Positions 33,017-34,462 of a stretch of DNA of 64,000 nt are shown piece by piece. The position numbers and the translations under genes are program-made. The DNA lies in contig CAKOOV010000001.1 in NCBI GenBank assembly GCA_934098435.1, positions 54,185-118,184 of the forward strand, in the 5' to 3' direction. Under the pieces are notes generated by a model. It was not told the DNA's origin. It was given only the letters and a program-made list of their open reading frames with translations, and searched no databases. Source of the stretch: an uncultured Bacilli bacterium. Lineage in GTDB: Bacteria > Bacillota_I > Bacilli_A > RF39 > UBA660. Numbering within the stretch: position 1 is the first letter of the stretch; each line of letters begins with the position of its first letter.

Positions 33017-34462
33017 TTAATAATATTTTTTGTATTTGTTTATTTCTATTTCGTTAGGATTATATTGAATGTTATATTCTTTTTTTTCAATGCTAATTTC
33101 ATTTATATTTAATGTTCTTCTTTTTACTTCTTCAATATAATATTGATAGAATTCTGTAGCTGTCACGGCACTATAAATACCTGATTTTAATGCAAAGGCA
33201 AATATATTATTAACACTCGCAGTACAAATTTGATTAGCCTTTATATTTTCGAAAGTAATATTTCCATTTTTATATTCTATATGCATATGCCCTATAGCAT
33301 GTTTTATTGTTTCTATTATTTTGTAATTTGTTTCTTCTCCAATTTCAGGTAATGATATAAAATACTTTTTTATATCCAAGTTATCCACCTTTCTTATTTG
33401 GCTTTTTTTGCCAGTTTTAAGTTCTTTAAATAACTGTTCCATATTATATTGTACAATATTATACATAGACAAAATAGCAAGCATTTTTATTACTTCATCC
33501 GTTTTTTCTTTTGTTTTATAGTTTCCCATTGTTGTCAATAAATCTGTAGACTTATAAAAATCTATAAATATACTATATTCATCTGTATTTGGTAATGTTG
33601 ATATTTTACTGTCCACAAGTGTTATCAACGTTTGTAAACTCATTACTTGTTTTTCTTTTCCATTATTGTCTATTTTTATGTCAATATCATTATTATTTCT
33701 TATAATTGGATAAAATTCACCATGAGAAGAGGAATTTCTTAAAAACCTAAATATAGGAATTTTAGTGGTATCAAAGCCTTTTTCTATTAAATATTCTCTC
33801 ATTATTCTATATTTATTATGTTCATGTGTTCCTCTAACATCTTCATATCTTGCTAATAACACCTCGCCAAGTGTTTGTGAATCACCATTATACTCTTTAA
33901 GTAAATTTTCTATTAAAGCTTCTGTCTTACTTTCGGGCTGTCTTAATATTTCATCTATTTTATCTCTTGTTTTTTCAAAAATTAAATTAATAAGAAAAAG
34001 TGACATATTTAATTTGAATATATTTATATTTTGATTTATTTGGGGATCATATAATTTTTTACTTATATTTCTTCTATCAACATCATTATTAATCATAAAA
34101 TTTAACATTATAAAGAAATAATTAATAATCATTAAATTATATTTTGCTCTTATTAATTGTAATTTTGTTTCGTCATAGCCTTCTTCAAGCATTTTCTGAA
34201 TTACATTAACTCTTATTTGTAAATCATATTCATATAAAACATTCTTATTATCTTTAGATAATTCTAAATATTTTTTATATGTTTTATATAAATTTATTAA
34301 TTCATTAGACATTGTTCCTGCTTTTGATTTAAGGAAAGGTAATCCTTCCCAAACCATTTGCTTTAATAGTTTTTCTGAATCTTCAGTTTTAATATTTTTA
34401 TTATTTTCTTCTATTATACTCAGTATTTGTTTTATTAATAATTCATTATCTTCTTTTTCCAT
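33017..34462 (-). CDS. hypothetical 481-aa protein with HEPN-like Rx4H motif(s); candidate RNase/abortive-infection-type orphan
   Basis: Intact ORF antisense to its neighbours. FLRNSSSHGEF (R242-H247; nt 33722-33739, checked on the DNA) fits the HEPN R-[NDH]-x3-H pattern. A second, weaker motif is IKHAIGHMH (387-394). No TM or signal sequence. Confidence 0.5.
   Translation of the reverse strand: MEKEDNELLIKQILSIIEENNKNIKTEDSEKLLKQMVWEGLPFLKSKAGTMSNELINLYKTYKKYLELSKDNKNVLYEYDLQIRVNVIQKMLEEGYDETKLQLIRAKYNLMIINYFFIMLNFMINNDVDRRNISKKLYDPQINQNINIFKLNMSLFLINLIFEKTRDKIDEILRQPESKTEALIENLLKEYNGDSQTLGEVLLARYEDVRGTHEHNKYRIMREYLIEKGFDTTKIPIFRFLRNSSSHGEFYPIIRNNNDIDIKIDNNGKEKQVMSLQTLITLVDSKISTLPNTDEYSIFIDFYKSTDLLTTMGNYKTKEKTDEVIKMLAILSMYNIVQYNMEQLFKELKTGKKSQIRKVDNLDIKKYFISLPEIGEETNYKIIETIKHAIGHMHIEYKNGNITFENIKANQICTASVNNIFAFALKSGIYSAVTATEFYQYYIEEVKRRTLNINEISIEKKEYNIQYNPNEIEINKYKKYY

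Follow-up and report, generated by a model that had tools for sequence, protein, structure and literature searches.

The window studied here is a stretch of 64,000 nucleotides from an uncultured Bacilli bacterium (GenBank assembly GCA_934098435.1, contig CAKOOV010000001.1, positions 54,185 to 118,184 of the forward strand). Between hpf (32383-32922, plus strand; Ribosomal_S30AE in relatives) and secA (34800-37304, plus strand), it holds an open reading frame (ORF) with an ATG start on the minus strand, at 33017-34462 with the stop codon included. This gene, called the target below, encodes P0001, a protein of 481 amino acids (aa). An earlier note, made from the sequence alone, described it as an orphan with HEPN-like motifs inserted between hpf and secA and proposed a stand-alone RNase of the abortive-infection or toxin type. 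Its sequence-level statements (coordinates, strand, motif DNA, and position between hpf and secA) all hold. So does its count of minus-strand genes to the right of the strand switch: the switch lies at ~8.7-9.3 kb, and beyond it just four substantial ORFs are on the minus strand, namely the target and those at 29257-30402, 30860-31246, and 58725-59201.

The ORF call and its translation are accompanied by homologs and by a constrained pattern of substitution. Against relatives, the target gene has a ratio of nonsynonymous to synonymous substitution rates (dN/dS) of 0.19-0.30. A spurious ORF is excluded because of this ratio, 0.2-0.3, together with the invariant motifs described below. Judged from these alignments, the ORF is genuine, is under purifying selection, and has a functional site.

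Protein family and conserved motifs

A word-indexed search of 5.8 billion proteins and an exhaustive HMMER search of 1.84 billion representatives each returned 19 homolog clusters, and a profile search added one further member, P0039. The target is not a strict orphan, as had first been supposed, because the family comprises 19-22 homolog clusters (about 20). No member is named, and a Pfam domain is present only in P0019 (PF13280) and P0023 (PF05670). P0001 itself has no family match in Pfam, NCBIfam, PADLOC, or PHROGs, where sub-threshold noise alone was returned (HopJ, PUF, RinB), and tblastn against phage and plasmid collections detected no relative of the target. The homologs come from human-gut and other gut metagenomes and metagenome-assembled genomes labelled Bacilli or 'uncultured Mycoplasma'. 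Two homolog bins are labelled Bacteroidales and are probably mis-binned. L009 (Hpf 96%, target 97%) and L015 (SecA 68%) are clearly contigs of the low-GC Bacilli lineage; their bins are labelled Paludibacteraceae and Muribaculaceae, which makes mis-binning likely. The 440-aa P0019 is annotated as a fusion in which a family protein extends to about residue 315 and a WYL domain follows (L016:548-1870; contig of 4.3 kb). This fusion was considered for what it might say about regulation and was set aside because RteC and HTH_17 genes follow on the same contig, which is probably chimeric; such genes are typical of Bacteroides conjugative transposons.

Two short blocks dominate the conservation of the family. 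The first is encoded at 33722-33739 on the minus strand, where the plus strand reads atgagaagaggaatttct and the reverse complement, AGA AAT TCC TCT TCT CAT, gives R242-N-S-S-S-H247. The invariant block extends beyond these codons as G248-E-F-Y251-P252. The second, K387-H-A-I-G-H392, is encoded at 33287-33304 on the minus strand, and its Lys takes the place of the HEPN Arg. Among 12 members that share 21-66% identity, just 20 columns are invariant, including R242, N243, S246, H247, G248, and Y251 around motif 1, I386, K387, and H392 around motif 2, and R105, F162-E163, and Y339-N340 elsewhere. Nine of these 20 residues fall within the 28 residues of the two motif windows (permutation p < 5e-6). 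The most distant member, P0039, reads LRDAASHGEFYP and IKNAIGHDNI; there D replaces N243, and the residue after Arg therefore stays polar (N or D). The patterns R-[N/D]-x2-S-H-G and I-K-x4-H are kept down to 21% identity. R242/H247 and K387/H392, the pairs that the earlier note had picked out, are invariant in all homologs, including R242/H247, on whose conservation it had made its proposal depend. The R-x4-6-H string taken alone is at chance level, as the 16 Arg and 6 His of P0001 lead to roughly one such string being expected, and another one, at 210, is unconserved. By alignment, the conservation of the motifs is far beyond chance.

HEPN domains are defined as four-helix up-down bundles with a polar residue after the motif Arg and often an acidic residue in helix 2 (PMC3710099). 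This upstream acidic residue typically occurs as Ex3[KR], and the motif itself lies where helix 3 ends and the loop to the next helix starts (PMC3710099). Motif 1 of the target agrees with the definition in its Rx4H spacing and in the polar residue following Arg (PMC3710099). Motif 2 has HEPN-like spacing and a polar second residue, yet it agrees only loosely because Lys replaces Arg in every member. Upstream of motif 1, the invariant F162-E163 lies within a long helix (146-173), but in the context E-K-T-R (E-x2-R). Motif 2 is preceded by E342 (E-x3-K), which is conserved in at least 90% of the 19 alignment rows and is not invariant.

Predicted modules and the relation to HEPN

Structure prediction for the full-length protein gave a mediocre model (predicted local distance difference test, pLDDT, 66.9). 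A model of the core, residues 95-450, built on a more diverse alignment of 19 sequences, reached a pLDDT of 86.6 and a predicted template modelling score (pTM) of 0.88 and is mainly helical. Secondary structure was assigned by DSSP of this core model, in which each motif belongs to a module of helix, motif, three-strand meander, and helix. Module 1 (residues 237-288, RNxxxH; 33599-33754, minus strand) has a helix at 237-247 that ends at H247, strands at 250-256, 259-265, and 271-275, and a helix at 276-288. Module 2 (residues 379-427, KxxxxH; 33182-33328, minus strand) has a helix at 379-392 that ends at H392, strands at 395-398, 401-406, and 411-416, and a helix at 417-427. In the model, each motif sits where a helix reaches its C-terminal end and passes into a loop, as the HEPN definition asks (PMC3710099). 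When the two modules are compared with hhalign, they align in register, with R242 opposite K387 and H247 opposite H392 (P = 1.2e-4 to 5e-4). By their sequence profiles, the regions that hold the motifs are two related copies of a single module.

P0032, a 1252-aa lipoprotein, was considered as evidence that the module is a generic domain. It contains 16 near-identical repeats of ~76 aa, each resembling P0001 residues 368-426 at 26-29% identity (YKNGNITFENIKA against YQNGDVTFSEIKA). The candidate was rejected, with the family-level comparison at 9.7% probability and a repeat that lacks the K/H pair; its E-value is inflated because of the 16 repeats. The likeness to module 2 is probably due to chance.

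A second protein family has a similar layout. In locus L020, P0039 is followed by P0040, a 456-aa protein with FTQIRNIIAHG and YEIRTAIMHG at similar spacing. Its family has ~70 clusters, in which Q-x-RNxxAHG and IRTxIMHG are kept absolutely. Module 2 of the target family shares homology with module 2 of the P0040 family over 51 columns at an hhalign probability of 92.7% (P = 4e-7), which places K387 opposite the canonical Arg of that family. The remaining module pairings between the two families are also in register, at P ~1e-4 to 1e-2. These profile alignments support a common two-module architecture with an Arg-His site; as to HEPN ancestry, they are no more than a hint and fall short of proof. 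A faint precomputed annotation of PF18736 (pEK499_p136 HEPN), which lies below every threshold, is attached to many members of the P0040 family. This annotation was taken up as possible proof of HEPN and was downgraded when direct hmmscan at E <= 1 proved negative. The pEK499_p136-like HEPN proteins are reached via the P0040 family only, and the target family itself has no PF18736 match.

Genes of the P0040 family occur downstream of hpf-secA in L102. In L103 and L104, they are part of a small, mobilisable element that also carries methyltransferases, a Mob_Pre relaxase, and a fragment of an integrase. In L020:565-4480, and also in L021, a 237-aa XRE-type helix-turn-helix (HTH) protein precedes P0039 and P0040. 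The HTH protein of L020 has a hydrophobic C-terminal half with weak matches to membrane proteins. This three-gene row may be a regulated two-effector module.

The reading preferred here sees in the target a HEPN-like, stand-alone RNase that serves as an effector in abortive infection or as a toxin. This reading stands about an even chance of being correct, and HEPN membership of the family is unproven. The only links to HEPN are the motif features, their helix-end placement, and the faint PF18736 signal on a distantly related family. Several results weigh against the reading. With the core model, Foldseek found no HEPN or other significant neighbour in the PDB (best E = 0.52, TM <= 0.17) and nothing significant in BFVD (best E = 0.17). 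Sequence-profile searches of the PDB with the target family, the P0040 family, and the pooled module yielded nothing, or unrelated matches (uL30, MLH3) at E > 0.1. P0001 hits no HEPN family in Pfam, NCBIfam, or PADLOC, and one-by-one scans of 12 divergent members against Pfam and PADLOC gave no HEPN profile match. The motif helices are short (11-14 residues) and form part of an alpha-beta3-alpha unit, unlike the canonical long helix 3 of a four-helix bundle, and the second motif has Lys, not Arg, in all members. In the hhalign comparisons, the module windows were centred on the motifs by hand, which favours in-register alignments. The whole-profile match between the target and P0040 families is weak (18% probability), and hmmscan at E <= 1 on the P0040 family does not reproduce PF18736. 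The full-length model likewise gave nothing significant in a Foldseek search of the PDB (best E = 0.68, TM <= 0.27). The HEPN-like four-helix fold that the earlier note had expected is not confirmed, as the model with a pLDDT of 86.6 has no HEPN match in Foldseek and no profile match exists.

The same observations could be explained by a conflict-island cassette whose product is not HEPN. The protein would then have a new fold and a different site, for a nucleotide or small-molecule signal, for nucleic acid binding, or for other phosphoryl chemistry, and the Rx4H string would be convergent or coincidental. This alternative, the main rival of the preferred reading, is possible but doubtful. It is favoured by the lack of a Foldseek neighbour in the PDB or BFVD despite a confident model, by the lack of a HEPN profile match for any member, and by motifs that sit in alpha-beta3-alpha units with no evident four-helix bundle. 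The presence of Lys for Arg throughout motif 2 and a conserved block beyond Rx4H (S246, G248, E249, Y251, P252), which is atypical for HEPN, point the same way. However, the motif agrees with HEPN in sequence (Arg with a polar residue after it, and His at a spacing of four residues) and in its place at a helix end, and it occurs twice, which is also seen in two-HEPN effectors. In addition, the related family has a canonical RNxxAHG and the faint PF18736 signal. HEPN families are also notoriously hard to detect by sequence or Foldseek-type searches; AbiB and AbiJ reach other HEPN families only at HHpred E > 0.1 (PMC13064643).

A broader proposal, which is tentative, joins the target and P0040 families in an unrecognised superfamily of stand-alone nucleases. 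Its members would carry two alpha-(R/K)x4H-beta3-alpha modules on a helical scaffold, would have either a derived HEPN or a convergent R...H RNase site, and would reside as single-gene cassettes in a hpf-secA(-prfB) defence hotspot. Solved structures do not contain the module architecture of the target, whose source is a little-studied group of bacteria from the human gut. The limits of current tools are evident here, as the AlphaFold model is confident and its invariant residues look catalytic, and nevertheless neither Foldseek nor profile HMMs give a neighbour.

The hpf-secA gap and the candidate function

Alignment to the empty sites of L023 and L026, which match the window up to ~32958 and again from ~34600, delimits a single-gene cassette of ~1.64 kb (~32959-34599) between the hpf terminator and the secA leader. 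Its GC content is 18-25%, compared with 27-35% in secA. The gap was surveyed in 80 metagenome loci anchored on Hpf (L022-L101), 45 of which also contain secA and are referred to as closed loci. In nine of the 45, including the loci with the closest Hpf (98%), the site is empty and the gap measures 71-242 bp; five carry the target. The other 31 hold different cargo of 1.0-3.5 kb, in at least 11 classes of shuffled cassettes. These empty sites in the closest relatives and the many alternative cargoes bear out the view of the earlier note that hpf and secA are normally neighbours and that the gene is an insertion between them. The survey did not find the gene to be core content throughout the clade, which would have spoken against that note (target in 5/45 loci, 9/45 empty).

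Several of the cargoes are known conflict genes. One encodes DUF4145, a HEPN family (E = 5e-12), and was placed at L072:7067-7714 from its LRSLGNIGAH motif. Another, the defence candidate KilA-N / PADLOC PDC-S22 (E = 4e-117), probably corresponds to the 294-aa cassette in L083. A CdiA_C toxin domain, a Rce1/CAAX-type protease, LemA with DUF2207, a metallophosphatase, and a surface protein are also present, and a DRT-like reverse transcriptase lies on an open-ended contig. The cargo scans were bundled, and domains were assigned to ORFs from size and sequence features, except for DUF4145 and LemA/DUF2207. Several further cargo proteins of 130-190 aa have no recognisable family. The gap is a mosaic of small cassettes (134, 144, 154, 173, 174, 188, 242, 363, and 390 aa among others) whose order and combination vary between strains, as in L069:2026-5500, L075:5029-8415, and L062:5029-8204, and most of these proteins have no recognisable family.

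Sequence divergence shows that the cassette and its flanks differ in history. Relatives with a target that is 57-97% identical at the same place have SecA and Hpf that are 94-98% and 86-95% identical to those of the window. The number of synonymous substitutions per synonymous site (dS) between the window and L001 is 0.14 for the target, 0.54 for secA, and 1.41 for hpf; between the window and L079, it is 0.61 for the target and 0.21 for secA. Incongruence of dS with the flanks in both directions indicates that the cassette has been laterally exchanged. This explanation replaced an initial one, accelerated evolution in place, for the 57-97% identity beside 94-98% in SecA. In-frame stops interrupt several otherwise intact copies (codon 271 in L008, TAG for CAG in L014, and after residue 277 in P0016/P0017). 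These independent nonsense alleles fit a dispensable or costly gene.

Distant homologs occupy related surroundings. L015 has a 29% homolog in its secA-prfB gap, beside an AAA_21 and RloB (AbiL-like) pair. There, L015:3368-5549 holds the AAA_21 ATPase, the RloB-like protein, and a 104-aa ORF between secA and the homolog, and a MacB-type ABC transporter and a Flg_new protein follow before prfB. From this gene content, the secA-prfB gap is also an island in that lineage. The homolog of L010 is upstream of prfB, those of L011 and L012 directly follow a remnant resembling the secA 3' end, and that of L017 is between a tRNA synthetase gene and ndk. A tyrosine integrase gene lies immediately downstream of the secA 3' end in L001:1-2942, with ParA and ParB, and in L008:3626-4945, with a PemK toxin. 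These integrases and the secA 3' remnants would fit integrative elements whose target is the secA 3' end.

It is well supported by these comparisons that the target is an accessory cassette of one gene and that the hpf-secA gap in which it lies is a hypervariable conflict hotspot. The gene or a relative recurs near secA (here, in the secA-prfB gap of L015, upstream of prfB in L010, and, for the related family, downstream of secA in L102), which could instead suggest a housekeeping factor coupled to hpf/secA in translation or secretion. Such a factor, or else a spurious ORF, is very improbable. As far as sequence data go, the presence/absence polymorphism already refutes the housekeeping factor. 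The site is empty in the closest relatives, only 5 of 45 loci carry the target, nonsense alleles exist, and the gene is transcribed divergently from secA with its own predicted promoter and terminator. That the gene lies near secA is accounted for by the behaviour of a hotspot and integration site, given the integrases after secA (L001, L008) and the secA 3' remnants (L011, L012). The invariant motifs and the dN/dS of 0.2-0.3 exclude a spurious ORF.

Also unlikely, although less so, is an accessory gene whose role lies outside conflict (as a regulator, scaffold, or niche-specific factor) and which happens to lie in a recombination-prone hotspot. Much of the hotspot cargo has no recognisable defence function (the surface protein, LemA/DUF2207, the metallophosphatase, and the unknowns of 130-190 aa), and some homologs are in unremarkable contexts, such as that between tRNA synthetase and ndk in L017. 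However, known conflict genes occur at the same site or beside homologs. Lateral exchange, a patchy distribution, and recurrent nonsense alleles also speak for a role in conflict, and invariant Arg/His residues of catalytic type are unexpected in a scaffold.

A mechanism can be sketched for the preferred reading, a HEPN-like RNase effector. The target would be the sole cargo of a cassette that is exchanged laterally within a conflict/defence hotspot of an uncultured, very AT-rich lineage of gut Bacilli. Its predicted product has two copies of a module in which a helix ending in (R/K)-[N/D/H]-x3-H is followed by a three-strand beta meander and a helix. R242/H247 and K387/H392, from one chain or from two chains in an oligomer, may form one composite active site with metal-independent RNase chemistry. 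The enzyme would stay inactive until it is triggered, for example by phage infection, and it would then cut cellular or invader RNA as an abortive-infection or toxin-type effector. Precedents for single-protein HEPN defence RNases are ApeA (bioRxiv 10.64898/2026.01.26.701840) and AbiD/F, AbiJ, and AbiV (PMC13064643). Two considerations count on the other side. The defence role is assigned through guilt by association, and the control of a toxic activity is left unexplained by the negative searches for a protein or RNA antitoxin, repeats, or structured RNA upstream.

These searches covered several forms of control. No neighbour gene is common to the loci of distant homologs and the cassette holds one gene, which leaves no type II toxin-antitoxin partner; the earlier note had likewise seen no partner gene. 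A non-coding RNA (ncRNA) antitoxin was looked for because AbiF and AbiV, both HEPN toxins, are neutralised by an upstream ncRNA (PMC13064643). The 138 nt upstream of the target fold no better than shuffles (z = 0.36), the region has no Rfam match at E <= 1, and the 57% relative does not conserve it. The gene has no tandem-repeat array beside it, and there is no CRISPR repeat array at 32900-34800 and no cas gene among the neighbours in loci with annotated neighbours. ApeA provides a model of another kind, as this single HEPN protein is held inactive and is switched on by a small-molecule ligand (bioRxiv 10.64898/2026.01.26.701840). The N-terminal ~95 residues of P0001 are poorly conserved, and it is speculation that they form a sensor or regulatory part.

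Among known systems, the stand-alone HEPN abortive-infection or defence RNases (ApeA and the lactococcal AbiD/AbiD1/AbiF, AbiJ, AbiB, AbiV) resemble the target in being single proteins with an Rx4H-type motif and a polar residue after Arg. They too are carried in variable or mobile regions and have little or no detectable similarity to other HEPN families, and ApeA works as a single-gene system. Unlike these proteins, the target has two motif modules per chain, a beta meander after each, and Lys in the second, and it has no profile or structural match to any of them. It also differs from the type III toxin-antitoxin systems AbiF/AbiV, as no upstream ncRNA antitoxin was found. The two R/K-x4-H motifs could form an intramolecular composite site, as in single-chain two-HEPN proteins (Cas13, the Swt1 and Csx1 MJ1666 dyads, and AbiTii homologs); HEPN dyad architectures are documented (PMC3710099). 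However, the target is much smaller than Cas13, has no CRISPR array or cas genes nearby, and has no structural match to Cas13, Csx1, or Csm6. In Csx1, a beta-hairpin directly follows the HEPN motif (PMC3710099), and strands likewise directly follow both motifs of the target. These strands form a three-strand meander, not a hairpin, and unlike Csx1/Csm6, the target has no CARF or Rossmann domain and no Foldseek match to them. If it is an RNase effector, the target would widen the HEPN-type defence repertoire by an enzyme family that is compact (about 480 aa) and has two sites and no partner.

The antiviral hotspots of P2 and P4 (PMC9122126) are similarly fixed sites between conserved genes with many exchanged cargoes that include known defence genes. 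By comparison, the site here is chromosomal (hpf-secA), has no integrase in the gap, has terminator-type hairpins as borders, and holds mostly uncharacterised cargo. The hpf-secA gap is a sharply bounded hotspot between near-universal genes, with at least 12 cargo classes, mostly uncharacterised, in closely related strains. It offers a practical anchor for mining defence and conflict genes in uncultured low-GC Bacilli.

Borders of the cassette, expression signals, and flanking DNA

The left border of the insertion site is the hpf terminator, an ATCAACA-type hairpin at 32929-32954 (plus strand) found by the terminator scan. This hairpin occurs at position ~9 of nearly all gap classes and also in the empty sites. 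Inside the cassette, the target has its own putative intrinsic terminator at ~32977-33012 (minus strand), a AAAAGTATATAA / TTATATACTTTT hairpin with a T-run. The scan missed this terminator because it is too AT-rich, as three G-C pairs are needed for a call; the inverted repeat agrees with the earlier note, which had given the gene a terminator of its own. On the other side of the gene, a consensus scan suggests a promoter and ribosome-binding site (RBS) at 34466-34513 (minus strand), with a -35 element TAGACT (34513-34508), a -10 element TATAAT (34490-34485), and the RBS AAGAGGAA (34466-34473). This region is kept in the 80-93% relatives, not in the 57% relative.

Just inside the right end of the cassette, alignment places a degenerate copy of the terminator-type hairpin (TTCACAGATTATGTGGAT, 34571-34590). 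Beyond it, at 34608-34713 (plus strand), a degenerate ATCAACA hairpin and three AGAC..GGCT hairpins form the right flank. The earlier note had assigned this cluster as the border of the gene on the secA side. The cluster does border the gene there, but it belongs to the secA leader and not to the cassette because empty sites have it too and because it hardly varies even where the target protein is only 57% identical. It recurs at the right end of other gap classes, and the same borders are found in other cargo classes.

The secA leader (34608-34799; also in L001, L007, L008, L023, and L026) consists of these hairpins and an AT-rich stretch of ~80 nt that runs to the start of secA. Its conservation exceeds that of the surrounding coding DNA, and it has no Rfam family match. 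This conservation suggests a cis-regulatory RNA or DNA element for secA. Upstream of hpf, the genes for a PrsA-like rotamase (66-87% identity) and an NTP-transferase (72-84%), at 29257-30402 and 31364-32305 of the window, are far more variable than Hpf or SecA in comparisons with L001, L004, L007, and L008.

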